Position numbers and translations under genes: made by a program. A stretch of DNA of 64,000 nt from an uncultured Gammaproteobacteria bacterium. GTDB taxonomy: Bacteria > Patescibacteriota > Microgenomatia > PFEM01 > JAHIFH01. Shown piece by piece: positions 8,360 to 58,131 of this stretch. Within the stretch, counting starts at the first letter, position 1; each line of letters starts with the position of its first letter. The stretch lies in NCBI GenBank assembly GCA_964347135.1, contig CAYFXA010000001.1, positions 7,563-71,562 of the forward strand, written 5' to 3'. Under the pieces are notes generated by a model. The model was not told the origin of the DNA, ran no database searches, and saw nothing but the letters and a program-made list of their open reading frames with translations.

Positions 8360-9439
8360 TTACTTCTTAACTTCCCCAATTTCTTTGCCTAAATCAATTT
8401 TTCCTGACTTTACTATTTTCCAAATTTCTGTTTCAATCTGTCTGGCAATTTTAGGATGTTCTTCTAAATAGGCTTTAGCGGCTTCCCTTCCTTGACCCAA
8501 CATCGTTTTGTTGAATTTGAAAAAGGCACCTGATTTTTCAATAATGCCAAATTCAACAGCCACATCAATTAAATTACCAGATTGAGAAATCCCACCAACA
8601 TTCATGATGTCAAATTCAGCGGTGCGGAAAGGTGGAGCGACCTTATTTTTCACTACCCGTGCCCGGTGGCGAGAACCAATCACTATTTCCCCTTCTTTAA
8701 TCGTACCAATTTTTCTTAAATCAAGCCGAACCGAAGAATAGAATTTTAATGCTAAACCGCCGGGAGTGACTTCGGGATTGCCAAACATTACTCCGATCCG
8801 ATGACGAATTTGGTTGGTGAAGATAACAATAGTTTTTGATTTAGAAATGGCGGCTGTTAATTTTCTCAAAGCTTGAGACATTAACCTTGCTTGAACACCA
8901 ATCATGGCATCCCCCATTTCGCCTTCGATTTCCGCTCGAGGAACAAGAGCGGCCACTGAATCAACAACTACCACATCAACTGCTCCTGACCGGACCAATG
9001 TCTCCACAATTTCCAAGGCTTGTTCACCCGTATCGGGTTGGGAAATCAAAAGTTCATCCAAATTAACGCCAATTGATTCGGCTCTTGCCGGATCCATACC
9101 GTGTTCGGCATCAACAAAAGCCGCAGTTCCTTTCATTTTTTGAACTTCAGCAACAACGTGAAGAGCTAAAGTAGTTTTTCCTGAAGCCTCTGGTCCGTAG
9201 ACTTCCACCACCCGACCCCGAGGAAAGCCACCAACACCTAGAGCAATATCAAGGGCAATTGAACCAGTGGGAATAGCATTGACCCTCTTTACTTCCCTTT
9301 TTCCACCCAATCTCATAATCGCTCCTTTGCCGTATTGTTTTTCAATTTGTTCCATTGCCATTTTAACGGCTTGGGCTTTTTTATTGGAAGTTTGTTTTTT
9401 TACAACTGGTTTCTTAGGAGTCTTTTTCTTTCTTGCCAT
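8360..9439 (-). CDS. recA: recombinase RecA (with lysine-rich N-terminal extension)
   Basis: Walker [10 protein letters not shown]; canonical RecA core. ORF track start at 9733 rejected because the extension runs antisense through tRNA-Pro. Start at [10 protein letters not shown] (9439, or the Met at 9445). Confidence 0.9.
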
Positions 9440-9484
9440 GCCCATTAAATTTTTACACAAAATGTGATAAAATTCAAGAGGTAA

Positions 9485-9561
9485 CGGGGTGTGGCGCAGT
9501 TGGCTAGCGCGTGCGCATGGGGTGCGTAAGGTCGCGGGTTCGAGTCCCGCCACCCCGACCA
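9485..9561 (+). tRNA. tRNA-Pro (anticodon GGG)
   Basis: Manual cloverleaf: acceptor CGGGGTG/CACCCCG, 4-bp D stem GCGC/GCGC, anticodon stem TGCGC/GCGTA with loop A-T-GGG-G-T, T arm GCGGG-TTCGAGT-CCCGC. C1:G72 plus A73 are typical of bacterial tRNA-Pro. CCA is encoded. Confidence 0.85.
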
Positions 9562-9563
9562 AA

Positions 9564-9586
9564 AGCCCAATTTTTGGGTTTTTTAT
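9564..9586 (+). terminator. rho-independent terminator after tRNA-Pro
   Basis: CCCAA-ttt-TTGGG followed by TTTTTT (9579-9584). Confidence 0.5.
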
Positions 9587-9604
9587 TATGATAGAATAAA
9601 ACAC

Positions 9605-10265
9605 ATGGCCCAAATTCTTATTTTTGGAGACAGTCTTACTTATGGCTGTTGGGATAAAAAAGGAGGATGGGTAAATAGGTTGAGAGATTTTTTGGATAAG
9701 AAAAAACTTCCCAAATATCGCCAGACTCGCCAAATCACGGACATGGATTTGGTTTATTCATTGGGAAGATCTGGTGATGTAACCGATGGTGTTTTGAAAA
9801 GATTCAAATTTGAAACAAAGCAAAGGATTATTGAAGCCAGGGAAACAATAATCATTTTCCAGGTTGGAACAAACGACACTTTCTTTTATAAAGAATATAA
9901 GGATCCTAAAAAAACGCTTAAGAACCACCCCTGAAAAATTTTCTAAAAAAATTCAGAAATTAATCAATGAAGCAAAAGAATTTACTTCAAAAATTGTTTT
10001 TCTTGGTTTAACTCCGGTTGATGAATCAAGTGCCTCACCTTTGCCTTGGGCGAAAAATAAATTCTTCAAAAATGAAAATGTTAAGAAATACGATGAGATC
10101 ATCAAATCCGTTTGCAAAGAAAATAATGTTTATTTTATTGATGTTTTTGAAAAACTAAAAAATGGCGCTAAGTATTTAGAAGACGGGCTCCATCTTAATT
10201 CAAAAGGACATCAGAAGATTTTTGAAATTGTAAAAGATTTCTTGCTAAAAAAGAAGATAATCTGA
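9605..10265 (+). pseudogene. SGNH/GDSL hydrolase interrupted by a +1 frameshift in an A7 homopolymer (or a sequencing error)
   Basis: ORF 9605..9934 carries GDSL blocks I-III ([17 protein letters not shown]). ORF 9864..10265 carries block V (DGLHLNSKGHQ). Removing one A from aaaaaaa at 9908-9914 fuses them in frame. Confidence 0.6.
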
Positions 10266-11477: not shown

Positions 11478-12326
11478 TTATCTTTTCGGTGATTGCTTTT
11501 TCTTCCAAGCAAAGAAGCTTACTGCACCTATTACCATAACAACCAATAGTAAAGCAAGGGTTTTCCCCTTATCAGCCAATATCCCTTCTGGCCTGAGTGT
11601 CGGCGATGGTGTAGGTTTTGGAGTGGGAGTAATATCAGGTAAAGGAGAAGGGGTTGGTTTGATTGTTGCTCTCGGACTAGGAGAAGGCGTTGGTGATGGT
11701 TCGGGAGTTGGCGTGGGTAATGGAGTCGGTGGAAGATGGTAAGACACTATAAGTTTAGGGTGAGAATTAGTGTCGCCATTCTGGCGAGAAGCAAATAGCT
11801 TCCGGCATTCGTCAGTGGCAAACATAACTACACCGTAATTGTGAAATTTCTCACTATGCCATTCTGAAACGAGTTGAGTAACATCCCAGTTATAAGACCT
11901 CTGGTCCACAATGTAAGCGATATCATAAATTATTCCTGTGTTACTATAACCCAAACTAAAATAGTTTTCGTATTCATTCCAGGCATCTCCTTGACGTTGA
12001 ACTTGGACACTGCAATTGTCTGTGTGATTTTCGAGAAGAACAAGGGAAAGAGTGGCTTTGTCGATAATTGCATTTTGAGGAAGCGAATTAAGATCAAAAA
12101 TTATGTAAACGTAACTCCTATAAGTAATCGTTTCCGTTTTTACATTTTCAATAAGAAGGACGTCTTCAAATCCGTGGCTCTCTCCACCACCAGGTTTTAT
12201 GTAGGTATCTCGGAGGGGAAAGAAAGTTAACTCTAAAGCAGATATTTTTTTAGGATGGCAAACCAAGAAAGCTAAAAAAAGAAGTCCAAAACAAAATATT
12301 CCTAAGAAAAACTTTCGCATACTCAA
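11478..12326 (-). CDS. secreted/anchored hypothetical protein with Pro/Thr-rich linker and C-terminal TM plus basic tail
   Basis: N-terminal signal/TM, about 190-aa domain, (PT/PS)n linker, then [11 protein letters not shown], a hydrophobic 20-mer and KKKQSPKR. Confidence 0.5.
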
Positions 12327-40683: not shown

Positions 40684-40851
40684 ATGCTATTTACTATTTT
40701 TAAAATCGCTGCCCTTTGTTTAATTATTATTCTTGTTTTAAAGGCTCTTAGAATAGTTTTTGTTCCAGTTAAGATAATTAAGTGGCTGATTTTAATAGGC
40801 GTGGCGATTTTCTTGCTGGTAATGGCAAGAAACTATATAGGAGTTTTTTAA
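40684..40851 (+). CDS. small hypothetical membrane protein (2 predicted TM helices)
   Basis: 55-aa hydrophobic ORF MLFTIFKIAALCLIIILV...; no RBS seen; may be spurious. Confidence 0.25.
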   Translation: MLFTIFKIAALCLIIILVLKALRIVFVPVKIIKWLILIGVAIFLLVMARNYIGVF

Positions 40852-41264
40852 AGCAACCTTTTCTTCGCTTTTTCTAACTCTTCATAGAGTCCAGGAATAA
40901 GATCATAATTTTTGGCTTCCCCAAGAGTTACCCAGGCAAAATCAGTAAAATCATCACCTAGTTTCACTCTCCCCGATTTATATCTACAACCAAATGTCAA
41001 ACCAATGACATGATAGCCATCAGGACGAGTGAATTCATAATCATTTAAAAAGATAAATTCACCTCCTACTTTAACTCCCACCTCCTCCTCTATCTCTCGA
41101 TAAAGAGTTATTTCGCAATCATCTGGCGCCTCCACCTTACCTCCAGGTACCGTCCACATTCCCGGAAAGGCGATTTCATCCTCTTTGCGCTTAATAATTA
41201 AAAACTTACCATCTTTTTCAATAACAGCAGTAACGGCGACAATGTGAAATTTCTTCTTATCCAT
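40848..41264 (-). CDS. NUDIX hydrolase
   Basis: Nudix box GGKVEAPDDCEITLYREIEEEVG. Confidence 0.8.
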   Translation of the reverse strand: MDKKKFHIVAVTAVIEKDGKFLIIKRKEDEIAFPGMWTVPGGKVEAPDDCEITLYREIEEEVGVKVGGEFIFLNDYEFTRPDGYHVIGLTFGCRYKSGRVKLGDDFTDFAWVTLGEAKNYDLIPGLYEELEKAKKRLL

Positions 41265-41285: not shown

Positions 41286-42284
41286 TTATTTCAGGTACTT
41301 CTCAATATTTTCATTGTGCTCTTCACCGGTTTTGGCGTAGTGCATTCCCCCTTTTTTGTCAGAAAGATAAAACCAATACTCGGTCTCTTGGGAATAAATC
41401 ACGGCTTCGATTGAAGCTAAACCAGGACTGCAAATTGGTTCGGGCGGCAAACCTTTATATTTATAAGTATTAAAAGGTGAGTCGATTGCCAAATCTTCTC
41501 TTGTTAGTTTTTGAGGCCACCAATCTATTTCTTGCCAATTTTTAGAGTCTGAATTGTCTCGGCTAGCAAGGGCATATTGAACCGTGGCATCAGCCTGGAG
41601 AGACCAGTTTTCTTGCCAGCGCTTAAGCAAGATTCCAGCAACAATAGGGCGGTCTTTTTCCGTCCGACATTCCCTTTCAACAATTGAAGCCAAAATTATC
41701 ACCTGGTTTTGAGTCAGGCCCTTTCTTTTAGTCTCCAGTTCTAATTCCAAGGAATACTTTTTTTCAAAATTGTTGGTAAAAATTTTAATCACTGAAGATG
41801 GGCTAGCATCCTTAGGTACTAAATAGGTATCAGGAAAAAGAAAACCTTCAAGCTCATCCGTTAATTGAATAAATTGCGGATAACTAAAATCATCCAAGTT
41901 GGCGGTTAGGCGGCGCCCAAATTCCTCTCGCCGCCACCCTTCAGGAAAAGTTAGCCAAATGTCCAAAGAGCCATGAGTTAATAAATAGGCAACCTCTTCA
42001 ACGCTCCAAGAAGGATTGATTCGAAAATCCCCTGCTTGGATTTCGCCTGATAAACCTTTGGCTAAGATAAAAATTTTGAAAGCTGAAGCATTTTTAATCA
42101 AACCAGCGTCCTCTAACCGCTGAGCTGTCAAGGACAAACTTTCGCCTTTATGAATAACAAAGATTTGGCTTTCAGCCGGAGGTTGACTAACCGGAAGAAG
42201 CGCCCAGCGCCACCAAAAAAAGCCGCCGATAATGGCGGCCACTAGTACCAAAATGACTATACTAAACTTCTTCAAAAAGCGCAC
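41286..42284 (-). CDS. mltG: endolytic murein transglycosylase MltG (YceG family)
   Basis: N-terminal TM followed by the YceG domain; conserved neighbour of ruvX. Confidence 0.8.
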   Translation of the reverse strand: MRFLKKFSIVILVLVAAIIGGFFWWRWALLPVSQPPAESQIFVIHKGESLSLTAQRLEDAGLIKNASAFKIFILAKGLSGEIQAGDFRINPSWSVEEVAYLLTHGSLDIWLTFPEGWRREEFGRRLTANLDDFSYPQFIQLTDELEGFLFPDTYLVPKDASPSSVIKIFTNNFEKKYSLELELETKRKGLTQNQVIILASIVERECRTEKDRPIVAGILLKRWQENWSLQADATVQYALASRDNSDSKNWQEIDWWPQKLTREDLAIDSPFNTYKYKGLPPEPICSPGLASIEAVIYSQETEYWFYLSDKKGGMHYAKTGEEHNENIEKYLK

Positions 42285-42462
42285 GGCGATATTTCTTTGT
42301 TTTCAAATTATAGATAAAAATCCGGCCGCACTTGCAAGTCACTTTTTCCGTGTCGTTTTTCCTTTTCTCTTTTTTACCTTTGTCCAATGGCTTGCCGCAA
42401 CCAACACATTGGCCTCGACTCAAAAGCCAAGCTTGTACTGGAGCAATGATATTTTTAAACAT
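42262..42462 (-). CDS. small zinc-ribbon-like protein (hypothetical)
   Basis: 66 aa with CVGCGKP...CKCGR; overlaps the mltG start by 23 nt; uncertain. Confidence 0.3.
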   Translation of the reverse strand: MFKNIIAPVQAWLLSRGQCVGCGKPLDKGKKEKRKNDTEKVTCKCGRIFIYNLKTKKYRRALFEEV

Positions 42463-42838
42463 TTTGTTTATCTAAGTATGCTTGTAAAATTATGGCCGCG
42501 GCAAAAGCATCCTCTTTTTCTTGGCGATATTTCTTCTTTTTGCCTGCCTCTATCATTTTAGCAATTGCTTCTTTGGTGGTCAAGGTTTCGTCTTGAAAAG
42601 ATACTTTTATTCCCGTTATCTTTCCTAATTGCTTGCCGTATTTTTTTGCTTTTTGGCCAATCTTTCCTTCACTCACGCCAATAACAATTATTTCTATCTT
42701 TTTTTGTTCAACTAGCTGGGAAATTTTCGTTAACGTTTCTTGATGGTTTTTGATAACCCCTATTGGCTGAACCAAGCCATTATCAGCAATAGCTAAGCCA
42801 ATTTTGGCGATACCAAAATCAATGCCTAAAATTCTCAT
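42455..42838 (-). CDS. ruvX: Holliday-junction-resolvase-like RNase RuvX/YqgF
   Basis: Start at MRILGIDFGIAKIGLAIAD (42838); RNase H-like YqgF fold. Confidence 0.8.
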   Translation of the reverse strand: MRILGIDFGIAKIGLAIADNGLVQPIGVIKNHQETLTKISQLVEQKKIEIIVIGVSEGKIGQKAKKYGKQLGKITGIKVSFQDETLTTKEAIAKMIEAGKKKKYRQEKEDAFAAAIILQAYLDKQNV

Positions 42839-43551
42839 ATTCTGACCAATTGGGTTCTTACTATTAACCGCTTTAAATAAGTTCCTGGCGGAACACAAGT
42901 AATCAAAGAAAGCCACTGGCTGTCATATCTCTGTTCCAAAACAGCCAGGTCCTCGGGTTTAGTCTCAGAGATTTCCCTTACCAAATAACGATACTGAATG
43001 CCATCAAAATCAACTAAAATTTCATCGCCTTCTTCCAAGTTAGGTAAAGTAGAAAAAATCGTTTTGTAATTTTCGGGATTAAAAAATTGGGGCAAAACTG
43101 AGTGACCAAAAATCACGGTGTTGCCGTACTGTCCAGGCAGGGCAGTACCAGGATAATGAATTAAACTTTTCATCAAATCCTCACCCCCGATTTGAACCGT
43201 GGCATCCTCAATATCTAATTTGGGAATAGAAAGATTGTAATGGGTAATTCGACTTGGCCTGGGTGGCAAAATCGGTGCATCTGGAAACCAACTTTTGGGG
43301 TTAGCGTAGTCAACGACCGCTTCTTTTCCCAAAACGGTTTCTTGAGAGGTTAAAGGGCTGAGCGGTTGCTGGGTAAAACGACTGCTGGTCAACTCATAAT
43401 ACAAAATCGGCAAAGCCGCATTACCGATTAAAACCAGACCAATGACCAAAATTAAAAAAGATAAACTTTTCCACAAAAAAGCCAGTCGTTTTCGTTGAAC
43501 CAATCGTTGACCAAGCGGAGCTGATTTTAGATAACGGTAGGGAAATGTCAT
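42835..43551 (-). CDS. sortase (transpeptidase)
   Basis: N-terminal TM; catalytic His in VIFGHS; TLxTC-type LSLITC active-site cysteine; conserved Arg in LIVRTQL. Confidence 0.8.
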   Translation of the reverse strand: MTFPYRYLKSAPLGQRLVQRKRLAFLWKSLSFLILVIGLVLIGNAALPILYYELTSSRFTQQPLSPLTSQETVLGKEAVVDYANPKSWFPDAPILPPRPSRITHYNLSIPKLDIEDATVQIGGEDLMKSLIHYPGTALPGQYGNTVIFGHSVLPQFFNPENYKTIFSTLPNLEEGDEILVDFDGIQYRYLVREISETKPEDLAVLEQRYDSQWLSLITCVPPGTYLKRLIVRTQLVRI

Positions 43552-45845
43552 TGAATTTCAACCTCAATCTCAATTCTATTGACTCTCCGGGGAAAAGTGC
43601 CAAGGCGCCCAGGTAAACGGGGAGAAATTACGGCTTCAAAACCAGCCACTCTTGGTAAATTACCTAAATAAGTCTCACCTATCACGATGTATTTCCCCGC
43701 CAAATTCTTTTTAATCTGTTCCAAATCTTGCTTAGGAATTAATTTGGCTTTTAGATGAGTTTTTACCGTTGCGACGCCTTTTTTATCAACTTCACCAACA
43801 TCAAAAGAAAATTCAGTTTCCTCAGGTAAGTATTCAAAACCCTCGGCAGCTGATTCTAAAACGCTATCTTCAACTAGTTCTTGTAATTCTTTTTCCGTGT
43901 AAACTAAAGCATTTGCTTGTAGTTTTAAAGAAAGCTCCAAACTATCCGTTTCTTCATCTACCTCATGGCTATAATTACTGCTAATAACTTTAGTGGCAAT
44001 CGACTCTTCAACCAAATTTGCTTCAGGAGAAAGTTGGGTTAACAATTTTTCTTTGGCATCTTTTTCCAAAGCGGCTTCTAAATCAGCCAGCAATGCCTCT
44101 TTGTCTTCCTCAGAAACAGCTTGAATTTGACGACTGATGCCTCCACTAAAAGCAGAATCATTTTTGGCAACATAATCCGATTTGGCGTAATTAGCAATTG
44201 TAAATTCGGTTCCTGCAGCCAAGTTACCCTCGGTCCCAATTTCTTCAGCAGTAACTTTGACATTGGCTTTACCAGGGGGATCGGCGGCGCTACTTTGAGA
44301 AGCAACGGTGACATCATCATCAAGGGTAAATTCCAAACCTGCGGCACTGGCAATTTCCGTTCCCGAATCAAAAGTTTTTTCACTGGAAGTACCGTTGTAA
44401 ATTGTTACTTCTCCTTTGGCTGGGTCACCGATTTCTTTAGCACCGGTCGTTGTCCGGCTCTTGCTGCCTTCAACCCCAATTTTCATTTGCTCGGCGGGCA
44501 AAATGAAATTTTCTTTATCTGGAGTGTCTGTTGTGGGATCAAGTTTAACCGTAAAATCTTTTTCCAGAATTTCTGGTTCCAAAAAAAGAGTTACTTTTGC
44601 CCGAGGAAGAAACCAATAGGCGGCAAAAGCACTGCCAATTAAAATCAAAATGAAGGCGATGATTAAAAAGAGAATCGGGGAGGTTTTAAGAGACTTGGGC
44701 ATTAACCCTCTAAGGTAAGCTAAATTCAGCTTCCTTAGAAGAGAAGGACCAGGACGAAAAGAGGTTATTTTGGCAAAAAAATTGCCCAAAAACGAAGGTT
44801 TTTCTTCGATTGGCGGTTCTTTAATCACAGGCGGTTCCCTTACTTCCGGTTCTTCAGGTTTCTCTGGCTCAACTGGTTTTAACGGCTCTTCGGGTTCGGC
44901 TTCTATTTTCTCTTCAGCAACATCGGTCCCTTTAATAAAACCCAGCTCTCCTGCAGGAACAAAACCTGGCTCTTCAACTTCAACCTCTTCTCCTTTCTCA
45001 ATTTTCTCTTCTGCTACCTCTTTCTTCTCCTCTTTTTCTTTTTTCACTGGTTTTTCTTCTAGAACCAAGCCAGCGGCTTTGGCCACCTCTTTACCACCAG
45101 CCAAAGCAATTGCTTTAATATCAAAATTCAGGGGCAAGATTTCTACTCTAGGCAAATGAAGGAATTCAACTTCTTCTTTCTTTTTTTCTAGCCAGGGATA
45201 GTTAACTAATTGTTGCCTGGCCTCTTCTAATTTATCTTCTTTGTTGTAAATTAAGATTCGGGCAGGCAAAGATTCCTTAGACTCAAATCGAGACAGACCC
45301 TCAATCAAGTCATCAGCCAAATTATCGCTTTTGTCAATCAATTCCGGTCCCAAAATCTTCCCAATTCTCACTAAGCCAACGCTTACCTTCTTCATCCCTA
45401 AATGCACCAAAATGGCGGTTGGCGGAACTCCTTCAGTAGCTTTTATATGATGAACAATTGCCTCAGTAACCACCACAAAACCAGCTGGTTTGAGATCGAG
45501 CTTTTCAGAAAGTTTTTTTAGAAGTTTTAATTTCTCATCAACAATTTTCTCTCCCTCAATCCAATTAAAAGGCAAGCCGAAAACAACTTTATCAGGCTCT
45601 TTAACCTCTCCCTCTATTGGCAATTTCTCGGCTGCAGAAGATAAACACGCGTCAACGGCTTCAATTAATTCTTCTTCATTCTCCCATCTTTCGGCGTTTC
45701 CCAAGGAAAGAACTTTGACCTGATTTTCAACAATGGCAAAGATAGCACTCTTAACAAGTTCCAAACCAATTTCCAGAGCAAAATAATACTCTGATGGCTG
45801 CTTTTCCTTTTGACGAATTTTGTTTAAGACAGATTTAACTTCCAT
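43548..45845 (-). CDS. large hypothetical fusion protein: N-terminal actin-like (FtsA/PilM-like) domain, acidic EEKPE-repeat linker, single TM, about 350-aa C-terminal extracytoplasmic domain
   Basis: YYFALEIGLELVKSAIFAI resembles the phosphate-1 region of FtsA/PilM actin-fold ATPases (weak). TM ILFLIIAFILILIGSAFAAYWFL. Start chosen at the Met at 45845 to limit overlap with alaS. Confidence 0.45.
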   Translation of the reverse strand: MEVKSVLNKIRQKEKQPSEYYFALEIGLELVKSAIFAIVENQVKVLSLGNAERWENEEELIEAVDACLSSAAEKLPIEGEVKEPDKVVFGLPFNWIEGEKIVDEKLKLLKKLSEKLDLKPAGFVVVTEAIVHHIKATEGVPPTAILVHLGMKKVSVGLVRIGKILGPELIDKSDNLADDLIEGLSRFESKESLPARILIYNKEDKLEEARQQLVNYPWLEKKKEEVEFLHLPRVEILPLNFDIKAIALAGGKEVAKAAGLVLEEKPVKKEKEEKKEVAEEKIEKGEEVEVEEPGFVPAGELGFIKGTDVAEEKIEAEPEEPLKPVEPEKPEEPEVREPPVIKEPPIEEKPSFLGNFFAKITSFRPGPSLLRKLNLAYLRGLMPKSLKTSPILFLIIAFILILIGSAFAAYWFLPRAKVTLFLEPEILEKDFTVKLDPTTDTPDKENFILPAEQMKIGVEGSKSRTTTGAKEIGDPAKGEVTIYNGTSSEKTFDSGTEIASAAGLEFTLDDDVTVASQSSAADPPGKANVKVTAEEIGTEGNLAAGTEFTIANYAKSDYVAKNDSAFSGGISRQIQAVSEEDKEALLADLEAALEKDAKEKLLTQLSPEANLVEESIATKVISSNYSHEVDEETDSLELSLKLQANALVYTEKELQELVEDSVLESAAEGFEYLPEETEFSFDVGEVDKKGVATVKTHLKAKLIPKQDLEQIKKNLAGKYIVIGETYLGNLPRVAGFEAVISPRLPGRLGTFPRRVNRIEIEVEIQ

Positions 45846-47622
45846 GAGCAAGTTGAGCGTAGATTCGACGCCGACCAGCACCAATTGCTTTTTCTTTATT
45901 TATCTTAACACGACCAATCTCTCCAGTCGACTTTACATGAGGTCCACCGCAAACTTCTTGGGAATAATTTCCAATCGAATAGACTTTAACTTTTTCGCCA
46001 TACTTTTCGCCAAAAAACGCAAGGGCACCCTTTTTCTTGGCTTCAACCAAAGTCATTGTCTCTGCTCGCACTGGCAGATTGGCTTTAATCTTCTTGTTAA
46101 TAATCTCTTCAACTTTTTTCATTTGGGCTTCAGTTAATTTTTCAGGATGGGTAAAATCAAACCGCAATCTTTCAGGAGTAATATTACTCCCCACTTGTTG
46201 AACATGGTCACCAAGAACATCACGCAAAGCCTGATGAAGAAGATGGGTGGTGGTGTGTAATTTAGTTACGGTCGCCGAGTGATCCGCCAATCCCCCCGCA
46301 AATTTTGTTTCCATCCCTGCTCGAGAAATCTCTTGATGCTTTTTAAACTCTTTCTCAAAGACTTTTTTTTTAATTTTTTGACCTCTTTCTTGGGCAATCT
46401 CTTCGGTCATTTCCAAAGGAAATCCATAAGTCTCATACAAATAAAAGGCGAGTTTGCCATCAAGGACTTTATGCTTCTCAACTTCTCTCAACCCTCGCTC
46501 AAGTGTTTTTCTAAATCGATTTTCCTCTACTTCTAGCTCTTGGAGAATTTGTTTCTCATTTTCTCTAAGATAAGGGTATTCATCTTGGTAAATCTCAACC
46601 GCTGTCTGGGCAAGGTTTTTAGCAAATGGTTTAATTAATTGAAGCGATCTCCCATAACGAATCGCTCGCCGAATTAGGCGGCGAAGAACATATCCTTGCT
46701 CCTTATTCGAAGGAACAACGCCATCAGCAATAACGAAGGTGGCAGCCCGAATATGGTCGGCAATGATTCGAAAATGCTTTTTGTTCTGGATATATTTCTT
46801 CTTACTTAACTCTTCAATCCGACGCAGTATTGGAAAAAAAAGCTCTGTTTCATAAAAAGTCTCCTTTTTTTGAAGAATAGCAGCGACTCGTTCTGTTCCC
46901 ATCCCTGTATCAACATTCTGCTGTTTCAGTCTCTCATATTTGCCTTTTCCTTTTTTGTTATATTCCATAAAGACGTTGTTCCAAATCTCGATATATCGAC
47001 CGCAGTCACAGTTGATATGACACTCTTTGCCAAAATGGAGATCATGAGATTTTCCTGTATCATAAAAAACCTCAGAATCTGGACCACAAGGACCAGTTTT
47101 GCCAACTGGTCCCCACCAGTTTTTCTTTTTGGGATAAGGAACAATCCTCTCTCCAACATTAGCTTTGATGCCTGCCTTTTTATATATTTCTTGCCAAATT
47201 TTTATTGAACTCTCGTCTCGAGGTGCATCTTGATCCCCTTTAAATACCGACACGTAAATTTTTTTAGGATCCATGCTCAACCATCTCGGCGAAGTTAAAA
47301 ATTCAAATGCCCAATTAAGTTGTTCCTTTTTAAAATAATCTCCCAGTGACCAGTTACCTAGCATTTCCATGAAGGTCAAATGGCGGTTATCACCAACTTC
47401 ATCTATATCGTCTGTTCTTAAACAACGTTGATTGCTCACTAAGCGTTTGCCTAATGGATGAGGCTCACCAAGAAGATAAGGAACAAGCGGATGCATTCCG
47501 GCGGAAACAAATAAAGCGGTGGGGTCATTTTCCGGAATTAAAGAAACATTGGGCAACTTTTTATGCCCTTTTTTCACAAAAAAAGAAAGAAATTTCTCTT
47601 TTAATTCTTTGGCGGTCATCAA
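45835..47622 (-). CDS. alaS: alanine--tRNA ligase, short form (catalytic plus minimal editing domain, no C-Ala domain)
   Basis: Class II AlaRS N-terminal motifs (FVSAGMHP, RCLRTDDIDEVGD, GNWSLGDYFK); editing motifs HTTTHLLH and CGGPHV. 595 aa versus about 870 typical. Confidence 0.85.
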   Translation of the reverse strand: MMTAKELKEKFLSFFVKKGHKKLPNVSLIPENDPTALFVSAGMHPLVPYLLGEPHPLGKRLVSNQRCLRTDDIDEVGDNRHLTFMEMLGNWSLGDYFKKEQLNWAFEFLTSPRWLSMDPKKIYVSVFKGDQDAPRDESSIKIWQEIYKKAGIKANVGERIVPYPKKKNWWGPVGKTGPCGPDSEVFYDTGKSHDLHFGKECHINCDCGRYIEIWNNVFMEYNKKGKGKYERLKQQNVDTGMGTERVAAILQKKETFYETELFFPILRRIEELSKKKYIQNKKHFRIIADHIRAATFVIADGVVPSNKEQGYVLRRLIRRAIRYGRSLQLIKPFAKNLAQTAVEIYQDEYPYLRENEKQILQELEVEENRFRKTLERGLREVEKHKVLDGKLAFYLYETYGFPLEMTEEIAQERGQKIKKKVFEKEFKKHQEISRAGMETKFAGGLADHSATVTKLHTTTHLLHQALRDVLGDHVQQVGSNITPERLRFDFTHPEKLTEAQMKKVEEIINKKIKANLPVRAETMTLVEAKKKGALAFFGEKYGEKVKVYSIGNYSQEVCGGPHVKSTGEIGRVKINKEKAIGAGRRRIYAQLAHGS

Positions 47623-47644: not shown

Positions 47645-48025
47645 TTATGAAGTTAAGGGTCTGCCGTTGCGGATGAAAAATTTTTTACTTGCCAATCGTC
47701 CTCTTTTTCGCAGTTTTTCGATATGACCTATTTTCTCTTGAGCTTCACCAGCCACTTCTTCTTTCACATCTTTTGCTTTTTCTTCTAATTTGGCTTGAAT
47801 TTCTTTGGCTCGGGCTCGAAATTCTTCTCCCTTTTCCTCAAAATCTTCAACTAACTCGGTTAGACTGTCCAGAGCTTCCTCGCTTTTTTTCTTAATTCTT
47901 TTTTTAACCTTTTCCCCTTCTTTAGTTTGGGTAAGGAAATAGAAGGCGCCAGCGCCAATTAAAGCACCTATAATTAATCCTTGAAGAAAACCACCACTGC
48001 GGTCTTGCTTGCTCATTTTATTCAC
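47645..48025 (-). CDS. YtxH-domain protein
   Basis: GGFLQGLIIGALIGAGAFYF N-terminal TM followed by a coiled-coil, as in YtxH. Confidence 0.6.
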   Translation of the reverse strand: MNKMSKQDRSGGFLQGLIIGALIGAGAFYFLTQTKEGEKVKKRIKKKSEEALDSLTELVEDFEEKGEEFRARAKEIQAKLEEKAKDVKEEVAGEAQEKIGHIEKLRKRGRLASKKFFIRNGRPLTS

Positions 48026-48305
48026 CCACTTCTTTCTCAGCTTTTTTTGATTTCTTTTTCCGTTGACCTAGCCAACCTAAAAGTCCAGCAATACCGGAAA
48101 CGCCGGTGATAGAGTTAGAAAGCGAAGCAATCGGTCGAGCCACTGATTCGGAAATCATTCCTGCGTCATCAAGCATTTTGTTAAACTTCCTAACCGACTC
48201 CCTTATCTCTCGCAAAATAAAAAAGACTTGAACCCCAATGATAGTAAGAACAGCGGTTAAAACAGTGACAACAGCAATGAGTAAAAGCTGTGTGTTATCA
48301 ATCAT
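48018..48305 (-). CDS. DUF948-like small membrane protein
   Basis: 95 aa, N-terminal TM; paired with YtxH as in Firmicute ytxG-ytxH. Confidence 0.4.
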   Translation of the reverse strand: MIDNTQLLLIAVVTVLTAVLTIIGVQVFFILREIRESVRKFNKMLDDAGMISESVARPIASLSNSITGVSGIAGLLGWLGQRKKKSKKAEKEVGE

Positions 48306-48370: not shown

Positions 48371-49000
48371 TCAATCCAAATAAACCGTTTTTGTTTGTCT
48401 TGTTTTTCTACCGAGACGGTTAGTGGTTTCAATAACAATTTTATTTTCACCGGAAGTTAGCCTCAGACGATAAGTAAATTCTCCTTTTTCATTAAGCTGG
48501 GTCAAACTACCATTAATCGTCACCGAATTATCAAGGTCGGTTCTGCCTTTAATCACTATTTGTTCCTCGGTGACCCGTTGGTTATCAAGTGGCAAATCAA
48601 CTTCTAATCTGGGTCTTCCCAATAAACCATGGTATTGATAAGCCAAATACGTTAAAAAGGCAACAATAAACAGAGCAACAACAACAATCAAAGTTTTTTT
48701 TGGGTTCCATTTAAACTCCTTGTTGAGGTCAACTTTTGGAGGAAAAACAATTTTCTGTTCTTGAGTTCGCCGGTAATCTCTTTTGAAAATCGCCACTACC
48801 TTTTCGGGCTCCAAACCTAAAAACTGGGCGTAGTTTCTGATAAAACCCTTAATGGTTGCCACCGATGGCAAAGATTGATAACTATCTTTTTCTAAATCTT
48901 TTAGATAGCTCTTTCTTATTTTTGTTTCCCGAGTAACTTCATCAAGACCAATTTGTTTTTTTAACCGATTCTCTTTAAGAATTTGACCTGCTGTTTTCAT
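48371..49000 (-). CDS. rodZ: RodZ-like cytoskeleton protein (HTH_XRE plus TM plus C-terminal domain)
   Basis: N-terminal LGLDEVTRETKIRKSYLKDLEKDSYQSLPSVATIKGFIRNYAQFLGL matches the RodZ HTH; central TM. Confidence 0.65.
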   Translation of the reverse strand: MKTAGQILKENRLKKQIGLDEVTRETKIRKSYLKDLEKDSYQSLPSVATIKGFIRNYAQFLGLEPEKVVAIFKRDYRRTQEQKIVFPPKVDLNKEFKWNPKKTLIVVVALFIVAFLTYLAYQYHGLLGRPRLEVDLPLDNQRVTEEQIVIKGRTDLDNSVTINGSLTQLNEKGEFTYRLRLTSGENKIVIETTNRLGRKTRQTKTVYLD

Positions 49001-51054
49001 TGAGAGGCAATTTGAGAAGCAAGATATTCCTCAGGGTTTTTAATTAAGACTTCTCGAGGTTTAGAACCTTCAGCTGGTCCAACGATTCCTGCCCTTTCCA
49101 ATTGGTCAATAATTCTTGCTGCTCGAGCGTAGCCAATCTTAAGCCGCCGTTGAAGCAAGGAAGCTGAAGCTCGTTCATAACGACAAACGGTCCGGACCGC
49201 ATCTTCAAAAAGTTCATCCCTTTCTTCTATTTCTCCGGCGGCGACTGCCCTTTTTGTTGGCATTTTAGTTACTTCTTCAGTGTATTGTGGTGCCACGCCT
49301 GCTTTTCTCAAAAAATCAATCAACTTTTGGATTTCTGGCTCGGAAACGAGTGTTCCCTGAATTCGGGTTGGTTTTGATTGGTCAGGAGGAATATAGAGCA
49401 TGTCACCCCGGCCCAACAACTTTTCTGCCCCTGGCATGTCAATAATCACTCGAGAGTCAACTTGGGAAGAAACATTAAAAGCAATTCGACAAGGAATATT
49501 GGCTTTAATCAAACCCGTAATAACATCAACCGATGGACGCTGGGTGGAAATAATTAAATGAATTCCTGTTGCCCTTGCCATTTGGGCAATACGACAAATG
49601 GCGTCTTCTACTTCTGCCGGGGAATACAAAATAATATCGGCTAACTCATCAATAATAATTAGTATGTAGGGCAAGGCAGCAAAACCAGAAAGCTCATTGT
49701 AAGCTTCAATATTCCGGACTCCCACTTCAGCAAACAGTTTGTAACGGCGGTCCATCTCGGAAATCGCCCATTTCAAAGCAGAAAGAACTTTTTCCGGGTC
49801 AACAATCACGGGCGTTAACAAATGAGGAATGCCATTGTATTGGGTTAGCTCTACTCTTTTGGGGTCAACTAAAATAAATTTAACCTCAGCAGGGGAAGCT
49901 CTAAAAAGAATGGTGGTAATAAAAGAGTTAAGACAAACCGTTTTTCCTGAACCAGTTGTGCCCGCAATCAAAACGTGGGGCATTCGCCCAATCTCGTCAA
50001 CAACGGATTCACCAGAGACATTTAAGCCAAGAGAAACAGCTAATTTGGATTTGGCTTTTTCCATTTGTTCTGAAGTCAACATCTTCTTGAGGGTAACAAA
50101 CTCTGGACTTCGGTTAGGCACCTCTATTCCCACTAAAGAACGGCCGGGAATAGGTGCTTCAATTCTGATTTGTCCGGTTGGCGCTGCCAAAGCAAGAGCC
50201 AGATCATTGGCCAAAGTAGTAATTTTTGAAAGCTTGGTTCCTAAAGCAATTTCCAAAGCATATTGAGTCACTGCTGGACCCAGGTTAACCTCTGCTACTC
50301 GAGCAGCAATTCCAAATGATTCAAGCGTCTTTTCAATAACATCCGCGTTTTTCTTGATATCCCCCCGGTTGGCCTTGCCACCAACTTCATCGGCTAATAA
50401 AGATAAAGGAGGAAATTCCCAAACCCCTTCTTCGGTGGGTAAATTGCTTACCAAAGCAGGGGCTAGCTCTTCTTCTTTTGCTGCTGGCTTCCGTTCTTCT
50501 CTTGGCTCTGAGACCTTCATCTCGGGTTCAACCGCTAATTTACGCCGTCCAGAAATTTTTCTTATGCTTACTCCAGCTTGGCGAAACCGGGAAAAAATTT
50601 TGGCTAAAAAAAGAATAATTTCCTCTAGAGAGGTATTAAAAATCACCACGACCCCGATAAAAACAAAACCTAAAAGAACAAAAAAAGCGCCAAAAGAACT
50701 AATTAAAGTTGCCAAGTTATACCAGACTTGAGCGCCAATCAGCCCTGCTCGGGTTAAGCTAACAAGGGCGATTGATAAAATAACTGAACCAGCAAAAACA
50801 TTGGGGCGGGTAATTTTCCACTGCAAACGCGCGAGCATTAATCCCGCGGTCAGCAAAAGAAAAGGTAAGAGCAAAACTCCCCAACCAAAATAGTGAGTGA
50901 GAAGAATAAACAAACGGCTTAAGATAACGCCTTGGCGAGAAAAGGAGAAAATGATAATCGCTGCCAATGAGAAAAGGAAAACACTGGAAATGGTATAAAG
51001 AGTGTGTTTTTTGAGTTTTAATTTAAATGGATTTTTTCTTCTTCCTCGGGCCAT
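48997..51054 (-). CDS. ftsK: DNA translocase FtsK/SpoIIIE
   Basis: 4 N-terminal TM helices; motor domain with Walker A GTTGSGKTV; C-terminal winged-helix gamma domain. Confidence 0.85.
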   Translation of the reverse strand: MARGRRKNPFKLKLKKHTLYTISSVFLFSLAAIIIFSFSRQGVILSRLFILLTHYFGWGVLLLPFLLLTAGLMLARLQWKITRPNVFAGSVILSIALVSLTRAGLIGAQVWYNLATLISSFGAFFVLLGFVFIGVVVIFNTSLEEIILFLAKIFSRFRQAGVSIRKISGRRKLAVEPEMKVSEPREERKPAAKEEELAPALVSNLPTEEGVWEFPPLSLLADEVGGKANRGDIKKNADVIEKTLESFGIAARVAEVNLGPAVTQYALEIALGTKLSKITTLANDLALALAAPTGQIRIEAPIPGRSLVGIEVPNRSPEFVTLKKMLTSEQMEKAKSKLAVSLGLNVSGESVVDEIGRMPHVLIAGTTGSGKTVCLNSFITTILFRASPAEVKFILVDPKRVELTQYNGIPHLLTPVIVDPEKVLSALKWAISEMDRRYKLFAEVGVRNIEAYNELSGFAALPYILIIIDELADIILYSPAEVEDAICRIAQMARATGIHLIISTQRPSVDVITGLIKANIPCRIAFNVSSQVDSRVIIDMPGAEKLLGRGDMLYIPPDQSKPTRIQGTLVSEPEIQKLIDFLRKAGVAPQYTEEVTKMPTKRAVAAGEIEERDELFEDAVRTVCRYERASASLLQRRLKIGYARAARIIDQLERAGIVGPAEGSKPREVLIKNPEEYLASQIASQ

Positions 51055-57231: not shown

Positions 57232-58131
57232 TTAAACGCGAGTTTCACCTTTGAAGATTTTGGGTTCGAGCCAATCTGGTTTTGGCTTTTCTTCTTCTTC
57301 CTCTTCCTCAACAGGTTTTTTCTTGGCGGAAACTTCTGCGGGCATTGGTTTTAAGGGAAGTTTGCGCTTGGGTATTTTTACTGAAGGCTTTTTAGCTTCC
57401 CTTCTTGCCCCTATTTTGAGACAAAAAGCCGCGGCTTCAAAAGTGGACGCCTCCACTTTGGAAGAAGAAAAACGGTTGGTGGCCCGCTCAATTCCTGATA
57501 AAAGATTGGAGCCAATATCACTGTCGGCCGGTAATCTCATTTGAACAATTAAACCAGTTATCTTCTCGGAGAGAGAGGCGGTTCTGGGATCAATCAAATT
57601 AAGTTGACCATATTCTTGATTTCGGGGGTCGTTATCAAGATTAATGATTTGACTCTCTTTAAAAGCCTCTCGATTGCCTTTATAAATACTTCCCAAGCTT
57701 TCTAAAGAGTTGGCGCCAATGGTAAAGATTAAATCCACTTTGCCACCGCTATAAGTATATTCGACTTTCTCTGAATCTAAAGGCGGATGCCCAATTCTTG
57801 GCTTAACAACCAAATTGAATTTATTATTCTCAATGTTGTAACTCACTTTTTCAATCGCGTCTTCAACGTAATCAAAAGAAATTACCAAGCTGTCTTTGCC
57901 TCCTTGAAAAGAGTTTTTAATTTTATCCACTCCCACTAAAGAAGAAAACTCAACCCTCATCTCGGTTGGACTGCCAATCTCCACTGACTTTTTAGCTTTA
58001 ACAAGGGAAAGATAAAGACCTAAACCCGCCGCGACTTTATCAAAACTTGGATTTTGGGGTAAGGCAATAAAAATGCTTTGGGCAGTGGCAAGAGCGGATT
58101 GGATTCGAGAAGTTTGATTTGGTGTAACCAT
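57232..58131 (-). CDS. hypothetical protein, possibly a catalytically degenerate DHH/NrnA-like protein
   Basis: It occupies the rbfA/nrnA/truB position between infB and rpsO. AQSIFIALPQNPSFDKVAAGLGLYLSL mimics DHH motif I with His/Asp replaced. Acidic C-terminal tail. Confidence 0.35.
   Translation of the reverse strand: MVTPNQTSRIQSALATAQSIFIALPQNPSFDKVAAGLGLYLSLVKAKKSVEIGSPTEMRVEFSSLVGVDKIKNSFQGGKDSLVISFDYVEDAIEKVSYNIENNKFNLVVKPRIGHPPLDSEKVEYTYSGGKVDLIFTIGANSLESLGSIYKGNREAFKESQIINLDNDPRNQEYGQLNLIDPRTASLSEKITGLIVQMRLPADSDIGSNLLSGIERATNRFSSSKVEASTFEAAAFCLKIGARREAKKPSVKIPKRKLPLKPMPAEVSAKKKPVEEEEEEEKPKPDWLEPKIFKGETRV

Follow-up and report, generated by a model that had tools for sequence, protein, structure and literature searches.

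An ancient gene pair of the Microgenomates: a sortase and a membrane protein with predicted actin-fold and baseplate wedge-like domains

A sortase gene and a large gene, for which we use the working name BIG, lie side by side between alaS and ruvX. This pair is ancient and kept across the whole Microgenomates class; it is not a recent insertion. According to our in silico analysis, BIG encodes a bitopic membrane protein that joins an actin-type domain, predicted to face the cytoplasm, to an outer homologue of phage baseplate wedge proteins, two folds that are not known to occur together. BIG and the sortase probably form a core cell-envelope module of the Microgenomates, an uncultivated group that makes up a large share of the bacterial tree and whose cell biology is almost unknown. 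BIG is modeled confidently by AlphaFold (mean pLDDT 83) and kept in essentially every member of the class examined. Its operon is a core one that also holds the wall-related mltG, a rodZ-like gene and ftsK, and it adjoins the near-universal sortase of the class. We regard BIG as a concrete candidate for an envelope or division component that defines this lineage.

Organization and conservation of the locus

The window, that is the whole stretch of DNA analyzed, is 64 kb long, and all positions are numbered within it. On its minus strand we confirmed a run of ORFs consisting of alaS, BIG, the sortase gene, ruvX, a 66-aa zinc-ribbon ORF and mltG (Table 1). A first-pass annotation of the same DNA had placed two genes, a sortase among them, between alaS and ruvX, and all of these ORFs are present. 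It had started BIG at a TTG (45884), giving 778 aa. The real start is almost certainly the downstream ATG (MEVKS...), since the family consensus begins there and both the database protein and the gene call have 765 aa. In the longest ruvX ORF, the PF03652 match begins at residue 27.

Table 1. Features of the BIG locus and of the BIG protein, with positions in the window
Feature	Position	Strand	Basis
alaS, short 595-aa form	45835..47622	-	NF002436, 830 bits; PF01411, E 6.5e-142
BIG, 765 aa, start ATG at 45845	43548..45845	-	ORF; database protein and gene call, both 765 aa and 100% identical
Sortase, 238 aa	42835..43551	-	PF04203, E 1.2e-24; TIGR01076 above cut-off
ruvX (yqgF), start ATG at 42838 (MRILGIDFG)	42455..42838	-	PF03652, E 1.9e-27
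66-aa zinc-ribbon-like ORF (CxxC...CxC)	42262..42462	-	ORF; tblastn in relatives
mltG (yceG), endolytic transglycosylase	41286..42284	-	PF02618, E 5e-76; TIGR00247, 194.6 bits
rodZ-like gene (HTH_25 and beta domain)	48371-49000		same conserved block as BIG
BIG residues 20-257, predicted cytoplasmic minimal actin/ASKHA-fold domain	45075..45788	-	pLDDT >90 in AlphaFold model
BIG residues 262-385, disordered Glu/Lys/Pro-rich cytoplasmic linker	44691..45062	-	pLDDT <50
BIG residues 301-309 (LGFIKGTDV), motif [LFM]-G-F-[VI]-K-G-x-D-[IV] in linker	44919..44945	-	conservation
BIG residues 390-412, predicted single TM helix	44610..44678	-	helix in AlphaFold model
BIG residues 415-765, extracytoplasmic Baseplate_J / phage wedge-protein-like domain	43551..44603	-	AlphaFold, Foldseek
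BIG residues 475-570, stretch matching Baseplate_J and PHROG 6	44136..44423	-	PF04865, phrog_6

From alaS to mltG, consecutive genes overlap by 11, 4 (ATGA), 4 (ATGA), 8 and 23 nt, the last 11 nt of alaS being shared with the start of BIG. An earlier count of five genes, all overlapping, holds for the chain from alaS through BIG and the sortase gene to ruvX; ruvX and mltG do not overlap each other. Between them lies the 66-aa ORF, which that count had left out; it shares 8 nt with ruvX and 23 nt with mltG and brings the consecutive overlapping genes to six. This ORF has no family match above cut-off in Pfam or NCBIfam, and tblastn detects it between ruvX and mltG in most of the related loci.

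The tight coupling with housekeeping genes had also been considered unusual, a point that our results weaken. Overlaps of 1-8 nt are the rule in this compact genome and recur across the window (rpoB/rpoC, ftsK/rodZ-like, several ribosomal-protein junctions), so those of the BIG block are not special; moreover, unrelated genes (for instance a nucleoside/AMP-phosphorylase-like one) occupy the same block in relatives. Overlap by itself is weak evidence for a functional link. A promoter and terminator scan of 40-52 kb of the window gave nothing beyond chance, so no internal transcription units are evidenced there.

BIG is carried by 157 species-level Microgenomates genomes, and Méheust et al. report a distribution that is the same as that of BIG. 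We examined 80 of these genomes for synteny. Nearly all of them preserve the order alaS-BIG-sortase-ruvX-(66-aa ORF)-mltG, and the recurrent neighbors of BIG are alaS, the sortase gene, ruvX, mltG, ftsK and the rodZ-like gene. The distance between BIG and the sortase gene has a median of -0.5 nt and is at most 30 nt in 66 of 76 loci, the sortase gene usually overlapping BIG by 1-4 nt. Elsewhere in the block, the median gap is 2 nt between the sortase gene and ruvX and 7 nt between alaS and BIG. The block as a whole is just as syntenic and just as tightly packed, alaS and ruvX included although their functions are unrelated, which speaks against a functional pairing. In Gottesmanbacteria, where the gene downstream of the sortase gene is an unrelated one (phosphorylase-like), the pair is still adjacent, while two loci contain BIG with no sortase gene beside it. 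The description of the pair as inserted is therefore misleading if read as recent, given its synteny across the class; absence of the pair from this locus in all relatives was not what we observed.

In Bacillus subtilis and other bacteria, the cluster runs alaS-yrzL-ruvX(yrrK)-yrzB-mltG(yrrL), with alaS, ruvX and mltG in the same order as here and small ORFs between them. In the Microgenomates, by contrast, the alaS-ruvX slot holds BIG and the sortase gene and the ruvX-mltG slot holds the zinc-ribbon ORF. The B. subtilis genes yrrK and yrrL correspond to BSU27390 and BSU27370 (PMC3814617).

Mirror-tree analysis across 38 genomes (the window and 37 loci), covering alaS, BIG-N, BIG-C, the sortase, ruvX and mltG, gave no usable signal of co-evolution. 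BIG-N groups with the sortase and BIG-C with mltG and ruvX, which we tentatively attribute to evolutionary rates.

Domain architecture of BIG

The succession of an N-domain, a linker, one TM helix and an ectodomain, read earlier from the sequence, is borne out by the AlphaFold model. In this model, the N-domain of about 240 residues is built from two beta-beta-beta-alpha-beta-alpha-beta-alpha halves and is predicted to be a minimal actin/ASKHA fold with degenerate nucleotide-binding motifs. Across 92 orthologues, its phosphate-1 position is occupied by E/Q/T and G/D/S, and phosphate-2 has no Asp and no GGG. The closest structures are those of FtsA and PilM, and the small ASKHA proteins EutJ and BT_3980 fit about as well (target-normalised Foldseek TM-score 0.51-0.55).

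The first-pass annotation had called this domain FtsA/PilM-like, which is right for the actin-type fold and wrong if membership of either family is meant. Searches with 10 diverse N-domains returned no Pfam match even at E <= 10, and the domain has no sequence similarity to any family of the Pfam actin clan. NCBIfam gave no match to it either, nor did the PDB searched with the family profile, and the full-length profile found no FtsA in the PDB at E <= 1. FtsA and PilM comprise 330-420 residues, whereas the N-domain of BIG is limited to the two RNase-H-like core halves, with which 215 of 370 FtsA residues align in the structure comparison. FtsA has four subdomains, 1A, 1C, 2A and 2B, of which 1C is FtsA-specific; BIG leaves no room for 1C or 2B, as judged from length and secondary-structure order rather than from a residue-level superposition. 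The phosphate-1 and phosphate-2 motifs of FtsA and PilM are not conserved in BIG. The mode of membrane attachment also differs: FtsA, which binds the C-terminal peptide of FtsZ, carries a C-terminal amphipathic membrane-targeting helix and PilM is linked to the membrane via a bound PilN peptide, whereas BIG has a true TM helix of its own.

The linker varies between 49 and 166 aa among the 92 orthologues, with a mean composition of 20% acidic residues, 15% basic residues and 11% Pro. It contains a conserved motif (Table 1), in which G302 is kept in 91, F303 in all 92 and D308 in 83 of the 92 orthologues; its G-F-[VI]-K-G-x-D core is also found in the distant Gottesmanbacteria. Lys and Arg are richer on the N-terminal flank of the following TM helix, so an N-in/C-out topology is expected, and on this model BIG is a bitopic membrane protein. 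At the outer boundary of the helix, W411, P414 and A416 are nearly invariant.

The region beyond the helix had been described as a 350-aa extracytoplasmic domain. A folded ectodomain is indeed modeled; its homology to phage wedge proteins had been missed. The only sequence family that BIG matches is that of the phage baseplate wedge: Pfam PF04865 is hit at E 1e-7 (31.9 bits, gathering cut-off 21.1) and phrog_6, "baseplate wedge subunit", at E 1.4e-8. Most BIG homologues carry the same precomputed Baseplate_J match in Pfam, and the PDB profile search gave a weak match to diffocin TRI-2. With Foldseek, the ectodomain aligns over its whole length (337-364 columns) with the wedge proteins of phi812, diffocin (TRI-2), Mu (gp47), XM1 and A-1(L). 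A rigid core of about 100 residues superposes on them at 3.0-3.6 Å with 14-24% identity, while the differing arrangement of the sub-domains keeps the global TM-scores low (about 0.2). On these three grounds, namely the Pfam cut-off passed, PHROG 6 and the Foldseek alignment, the ectodomain of BIG is a homologue of the baseplate wedge proteins (Baseplate_J / gp47 / gp6-type) of contractile phage tails and tailocins. Unlike in tail and tailocin wedge proteins, the domain follows a TM helix and a cytoplasmic domain in one fused protein, and its gene lies in a housekeeping operon without other tail genes. A profile search with the ectodomain collected about 3,150 clusters at 50% identity (E <= 1e-30); the best 150 representative matches listed are all orthologues or orthologue fragments.

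The sortase and the search for its substrates

The sortase belongs to its family with clear scores (PF04203, 86.9 bits against a cut-off of 26.6; TIGR01076, 54.7 bits against 39.35). It has an N-terminal TM anchor at about residues 23-52 and a conserved WFP motif upstream of the catalytic residues. The motifs that had been proposed as catalytic are real: H150 (FGHS; GHS in the family), C219 (LITC; L.TC) and R228 are each kept in at least 90% of 77 orthologues, and the sortase looks active, with an intact His-Cys-Arg triad. Its scores with the NCBIfam models for classes C, D, E, F and GN fall far short of their cut-offs (best class models 45-55 bits against 140-166), and it has no match to the NCBIfam models of class A or B. 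Its nearest solved structures are the SrtD-type 4d70 (E 1.4e-9) and class C pilus sortases. With the Gram-positive housekeeping sortases (A, E) and with classes C and D it shares the fold family, the triad and the N-terminal membrane anchor; it differs from the classified sortases in sitting in a housekeeping operon and not beside substrate genes.

We scanned every stop-to-stop ORF in the 64-kb window and in about 1 Mb of sequence from 80 related loci for a C-terminal hydrophobic stretch followed by a basic tail, and no sortase substrate or sorting motif was found in these sequences. The sole candidate, a CBM96-type surface protein (11478-12326), was rejected: no motif is conserved ahead of the TM helix among its orthologues, and long cytoplasmic tails occur in several of them. 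Its sequence characteristics are those of a plain C-terminally anchored protein.

Proposed role of the pair and alternative explanations

The link between BIG and the sortase as functional partners is drawn solely from their adjacency. Our leading reading, which we put forward tentatively, is that of an ancient class-wide envelope pair, in which BIG, produced along with the sortase, would span the membrane as a non-enzymatic scaffold. GspL consists of a non-catalytic actin-like cytoplasmic domain, one TM helix and a folded outer domain, and RodZ is likewise bitopic, linking contact with the cytoskeleton on the cytoplasmic side to a beta-rich domain outside. BIG may work in the manner of GspL, PilM-PilN or RodZ. 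The GspL and PilM-PilN platforms, in which an actin-like cytoplasmic domain is joined to a bitopic membrane part as in BIG, are probably the closest analogue; RodZ differs in binding its actin homologue through a helix-turn-helix domain, whereas BIG itself carries the actin-fold domain. In the proposed scaffold, the actin-fold domain and the linker peptide would dock cytoplasmic partners, either by associating with themselves or by binding a protein of the cytoskeleton or of division, and the wedge-like ectodomain would oligomerise on the external face of the membrane. Production together with the sortase would then allow surface proteins to be linked covalently to peptidoglycan or lipid II at defined places where the wall is being made, which fits the locus because mltG, the rodZ-like gene and ftsK flank it. 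A role of the pair in the envelope or in division, as suggested in the first-pass annotation, is plausible; the link to episymbiosis also raised there is pure speculation.

It is somewhat unlikely that the adjacency is meaningless and that BIG is a sortase-independent division or elongation protein, a membrane-tethered FtsA-like adaptor held in the frozen operon of a compact genome. However, BIG and the sortase gene are the two additions relative to the B. subtilis arrangement of alaS, ruvX and mltG. Both share a Microgenomates-wide distribution and they stay adjacent where downstream genes change. For an FtsA-like adaptor, moreover, the ATP motifs would be expected in the N-domain along with subdomains 1C and 2B, and it has none of these.

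A more ambitious and rather unlikely version of the scaffold makes BIG the core of an unrecognised trans-envelope machine of the Microgenomates. The wedge-like domains, a domesticated phage module, would form a ring or platform outside, coupled through the TM helix to a nucleotide-independent lattice of actin-fold domains inside, with the co-translated sortase stapling the platform or its cargo to the wall. If true, such a machine might, for instance, be the base on which a surface or host-attachment organelle is built.

BIG could also be the dedicated substrate of the sortase, its ectodomain being cleaved or cross-linked and thereby attached to peptidoglycan or polymerised, as in the marine class GN sortase-target pairs. 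The tight and conserved one-to-one pairing of the genes would suit such a relationship, as would the empty outcome of the substrate scan. A nearly invariant Leu-Pro-x-Ala (L413, P414, A416) sits exactly at the outer membrane boundary, and a C-terminal P-x-L-P-x-x-L-x-T-F-P-R stretch is conserved. We nevertheless consider BIG an improbable substrate. It has no C-terminal sorting signal (a motif, then a TM helix, then a basic tail); the LPxA comes after the TM helix and not before it, so that cleavage would leave the membrane-embedded half on the enzyme; and Thr, the usual P1 residue of sortase motifs, is missing from it. At the C terminus, the conserved Pro-rich stretch lies inside the folded domain (pLDDT >90).

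An assembly platform for pili or secretion, with BIG as a GspL-like protein in which a PilM-type cytoplasmic domain is fused to an outer domain in place of PilN, is very doubtful. There are no pil, gsp or other secretion genes in the conserved neighborhood, BIG has no match to the PilM_2, GspL (T2SSL, GspL_C) or PilN models even at E <= 10, and, judged by its length and the order of its secondary-structure elements, it has no SHS2/1C subdomain. Outside the membrane its domain resembles Baseplate_J, whereas those of GspL_C and PilN are ferredoxin-like, and CPR already have a separate PilM family.

That the region is a remnant of a prophage or tailocin, or an anti-phage element such as a baseplate-protein decoy, is highly improbable: a remnant would explain why the sole family match and the structural neighbors of BIG are phage and diffocin baseplate proteins, but no sheath, tube, spike, gp25-like or gpI-like genes were found among the window neighbors or in the syntenic loci, the alaS-ruvX position and gene order are conserved in about 80 species, the GC content equals that of the surroundings, no relative was found on IMG/VR viral contigs or by tblastn of the ectodomain against 50,697 phage records, and the PADLOC defence models gave no match. 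The prophage or tailocin reading is largely refuted by the conserved synteny. We infer that BIG is cellular rather than viral and that its baseplate-like domain is an old domestication of a phage tail module, as the envelope-scaffold reading also supposes; BIG would then show clearly how a structural module of phages can be taken over for housekeeping by the host.

Our literature searches on the sortase or a baseplate-like protein in CPR or Microgenomates yielded only general statements on the sortase and nothing on BIG. Keyword searches can be misled by the name that BIG receives in automatic annotation, "baseplate J/gp47 family protein", when they look for prophages or viral contigs in CPR; a keyword list of that type for viral searches is described in PMC4742961.

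Organization of the gene block and start of BIG

BIG, the gene for a large membrane protein between alaS and a sortase gene, lies in a tightly packed series of minus-strand genes running from ftsK through a Nudix hydrolase gene, as defined by ORF calls and family searches. The first-pass annotation had placed a sortase and a 778-aa actin-like/TM fusion protein between alaS and ruvX, and our ORF and junction analysis bore this out apart from the length of BIG and one missed small gene. The longest form, from a TTG start at 45884, does have 778 aa. However, since the family consensus starts at MEVK, the identical database protein has 765 aa and a gene call made independently on a different assembly also chose the ATG at 45845, we retained this ATG as the start of a 765-aa protein. 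The overlap between the five reading frames was present as claimed, but ruvX and mltG are separated by a sixth gene, a 66-aa ORF. This ORF carries a CxxC...CxC zinc-ribbon pattern and lies between ruvX and mltG in most of 80 related loci (tblastn); no family assignment above cut-off was found.

Genes of the block and further features of the window (overlaps calculated with realistic starts)
Feature	Position	Strand	Overlap with next gene downstream
ftsK	48997-51054	minus	
RodZ-like HTH_25 protein	48371-49000	minus	
95-aa membrane protein	48018-48305	minus	
ytxH	47645-48025	minus	
alaS	45835-47622	minus	11 nt
BIG, 765 aa	start ATG 45845	minus	4 nt (ATGA)
Sortase	42835-43551	minus	4 nt (ATGA)
ruvX	42455-42838	minus	8 nt
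66-aa CxxC...CxC ORF	42262-42462	minus	23 nt
mltG	41286-42284	minus	
Nudix hydrolase	40848-41264	minus	
RecA ORF	8360-9733	minus	
CBM96-type surface protein	11478-12326	minus	
299-aa ORF	57232-58131	minus	

Within the block, alaS is the short 595-aa form (NF002436 type), compared to 847 positions in the TIGR00344 alaS model. In the RodZ-like protein, an HTH_25 domain is joined to a TM segment and a Glucodextran_B-type beta domain; its gene overlaps ftsK by 4 nt and keeps this upstream place within the block in most loci. Elsewhere, the 299-aa ORF is flanked by pnp and infB, with a 1-nt overlap with infB, and gave no Pfam match at E ≤ 0.001. The longest form of the RecA ORF has 457 aa (TTG start) with the RecA domain from residue 121, so that either translation truly starts further downstream or the protein has an N-terminal extension of about 120 aa. 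Almost all genes of at least 150 aa in the window (1-64000) are on the minus strand, and GC skew stays below zero between about 4 kb and 62 kb; strand-composition disparity is named in the title of a paper on a closed Microgenomates genome (PMC7143001).

Domains of BIG

The AlphaFold model of BIG, built on 92 homologues, has a mean pLDDT of 83 and four parts. Residues 20-257 (pLDDT >90) form two successive beta-beta-beta-alpha-beta-alpha-beta-alpha units, which is the actin/ASKHA core, and Foldseek retrieved the same superfamily (top target-normalised TM-scores of 0.51-0.55, for the small proteins EutJ and BT_3980). Describing the N-domain as actin-like and nearest to FtsA/PilM is correct for its fold, but not for family membership. 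Compared to FtsA and PilM, it is about 140 residues shorter and lacks the 1C and 2B subdomains, judging from its length and the order of its secondary-structure elements. Across the family, neither the phosphate-1 nor the phosphate-2 motif is kept, and a Pfam search of ten diverse N-domains gave no match even at E ≤ 10. Because the domain is short, its motifs are degenerate and Pfam matches are absent, we place it outside both families and consider that it probably does not bind nucleotides.

Residues 262-385 are disordered and Glu/Lys/Pro-rich, and in orthologues the linker measures between 49 and 166 aa. It contains a near-invariant motif, [LFM]-G-F-[VI]-K-G-x-D-[IV] (G in 91/92 and F in 92/92 sequences), retained by even the most divergent orthologues. 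Such a conserved peptide within a disordered tether marks a putative partner-docking site. One TM helix follows (residues 390-412), and its more basic N-side flank indicates an N-in/C-out topology.

The folded ectodomain (residues 415-765; pLDDT 89 when modeled alone) is not the anonymous domain it had seemed. It matches Pfam Baseplate_J (31.9 bits, cut-off 21.1) and PHROG 6 "baseplate wedge subunit" (E 1.4e-8), and all Foldseek PDB matches of its model at E ≤ 1e-3, except one Streptomyces GlxA domain, are phage or tailocin baseplate wedge proteins (phi812, diffocin TRI-2, Mu gp47, XM1, A-1(L), Pa193, and phiCD508). These alignments span the whole target, with a rigid core of about 100 residues at 3.0-3.6 Å and 14-24% identity. 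Global TM-scores against the wedge proteins are only about 0.2; the sub-domains are therefore arranged differently. To our knowledge, and within the searches made, no protein has been described that joins a minimal actin fold with a degenerate nucleotide site to a TM helix and a complete ectodomain resembling baseplate wedge proteins, and a literature search returned no description of BIG.

Conservation of the locus and the sortase

Scanning a single genome for each GTDB species gave 157 BIG loci, and 80 were retained for comparison. All 80 are from Microgenomates wherever the label is credible, with Ames-, Shapiro-, Chisholm-, Davies-, Gottesman-, Woese-, and Collierbacteria represented. Many MAG records with this Microgenomates-type operon (among L002-L080, the related loci) carry the title "uncultured Gammaproteobacteria", "Pseudomonadales", "Nevskiaceae" or "Bathyarchaeia"; these public labels are evidently wrong. 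A profile of the TM helix and ectodomain retrieved 3,150 clusters (50% identity) at E ≤ 1e-30, and the best 150 of these were all full-length BIG orthologues or fragments thereof.

The order ftsK, rodZ-like, ..., alaS, BIG, sortase, ruvX, (66-aa ORF), mltG was found in nearly all 80 loci (tblastn with the window proteins). The median distance from BIG to the sortase gene is -0.5 nt; it is at most 30 nt in 66/76 loci, and half overlap. Insertions separate the two genes in L060 and L065. In two related species (L075 and L076; 5900-8620), ruvX directly follows BIG, alaS is on the opposite strand and no sortase gene adjoins BIG, which makes them a natural case in which to ask whether BIG depends on the sortase. 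In five Gottesmanbacteria loci (L056, L069, L072, L074, and L078; about 8800-10200), an ORF of about 448 aa replaces ruvX after the sortase gene, overlapping it by about 85-90 nt in stop-to-stop reading frames. We judged its product to be nucleoside/AMP-phosphorylase-like from a ...HSTGG... motif. Unrelated genes can therefore enter the block.

The sortase, N-terminally anchored by a TM segment, scored above cut-off against PF04203 (E 1.2e-24) and TIGR01076, but far under the curated cut-offs for classes C, D, E, F, and GN, and it matched none of the class A or class B models. The nearest solved structures are the SrtD-type 4d70 and class C pilus sortases. The His, Cys and Arg motifs already noticed are real: H150 (GH150S), C219 (L.TC219) and R228 are each kept in at least 90% of 77 aligned orthologues from related genomes; an upstream W-F-P motif is conserved as well. 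The protein looks like an active transpeptidase. We regard it as a new, unclassed addition to a known enzyme family; its prevalence in the Microgenomates class is already recorded in the literature.

No sortase substrate was identified among the ORFs of the window and related loci. A C-terminal TM helix together with a basic tail occurred in a single ORF, that of the CBM96-type surface protein (signal peptide, CBM96/disaggregatase-like (DNRLRE-type) domain, Pro/Thr-rich stalk and C-terminal TM anchor). Though resembling a substrate, this protein was ruled out as one, its orthologues sharing no common motif ahead of the TM helix.

Possible role of BIG with the sortase

The architecture and folds of BIG, its degenerate nucleotide site and linker peptide, the intact sortase triad and the class-wide synteny are established; this anatomy and conservation are solid, and surprising. 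In this major class of uncultivated bacteria, BIG is a universal protein encoded in a housekeeping operon. What BIG does we infer from context only. Our tentative preference is that BIG may be a non-enzymatic trans-membrane scaffold, similar in kind to known bitopic actin-fold scaffolds, with GspL (a PilM-PilN-type fusion) and RodZ as analogues. The actin-fold domain and linker peptide would bind a partner or self-associate in the cytoplasm, and the wedge-like ectodomain might oligomerize outside the membrane. In baseplates, its phage relatives are organized as dimers and rings. On this view, BIG would be produced together with the sortase and both would work at common sites, beside wall-remodeling functions such as MltG.

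The main rival, which we find doubtful, is that the two are simply frozen neighbours. In its favour, the alaS-BIG and sortase-ruvX junctions are equally tight, at least ten other junctions in the window (rpoB/rpoC among them) also overlap by 1-8 nt, and the block also holds unrelated genes. BIG is unlikely to be a substrate of the sortase: it lacks a C-terminal sorting signal, and, at the outer membrane boundary, its near-invariant L-P-x-A is wrongly placed relative to the TM helix and has no Thr where one is usual. A pilus or secretion platform is very improbable, as genomic support is absent. A prophage or defence origin of the region is essentially excluded, being contradicted by synteny, and BIG showed no relatives on IMG/VR viral contigs or in phage genomes and no match to defence-system models. 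Public records annotate BIG as "baseplate J/gp47 family protein" or "hypothetical"; with the former name on a universal cellular gene (as in the database homologues P0019 and P0064), virus or prophage detection by keyword could mistake it for a viral hallmark.
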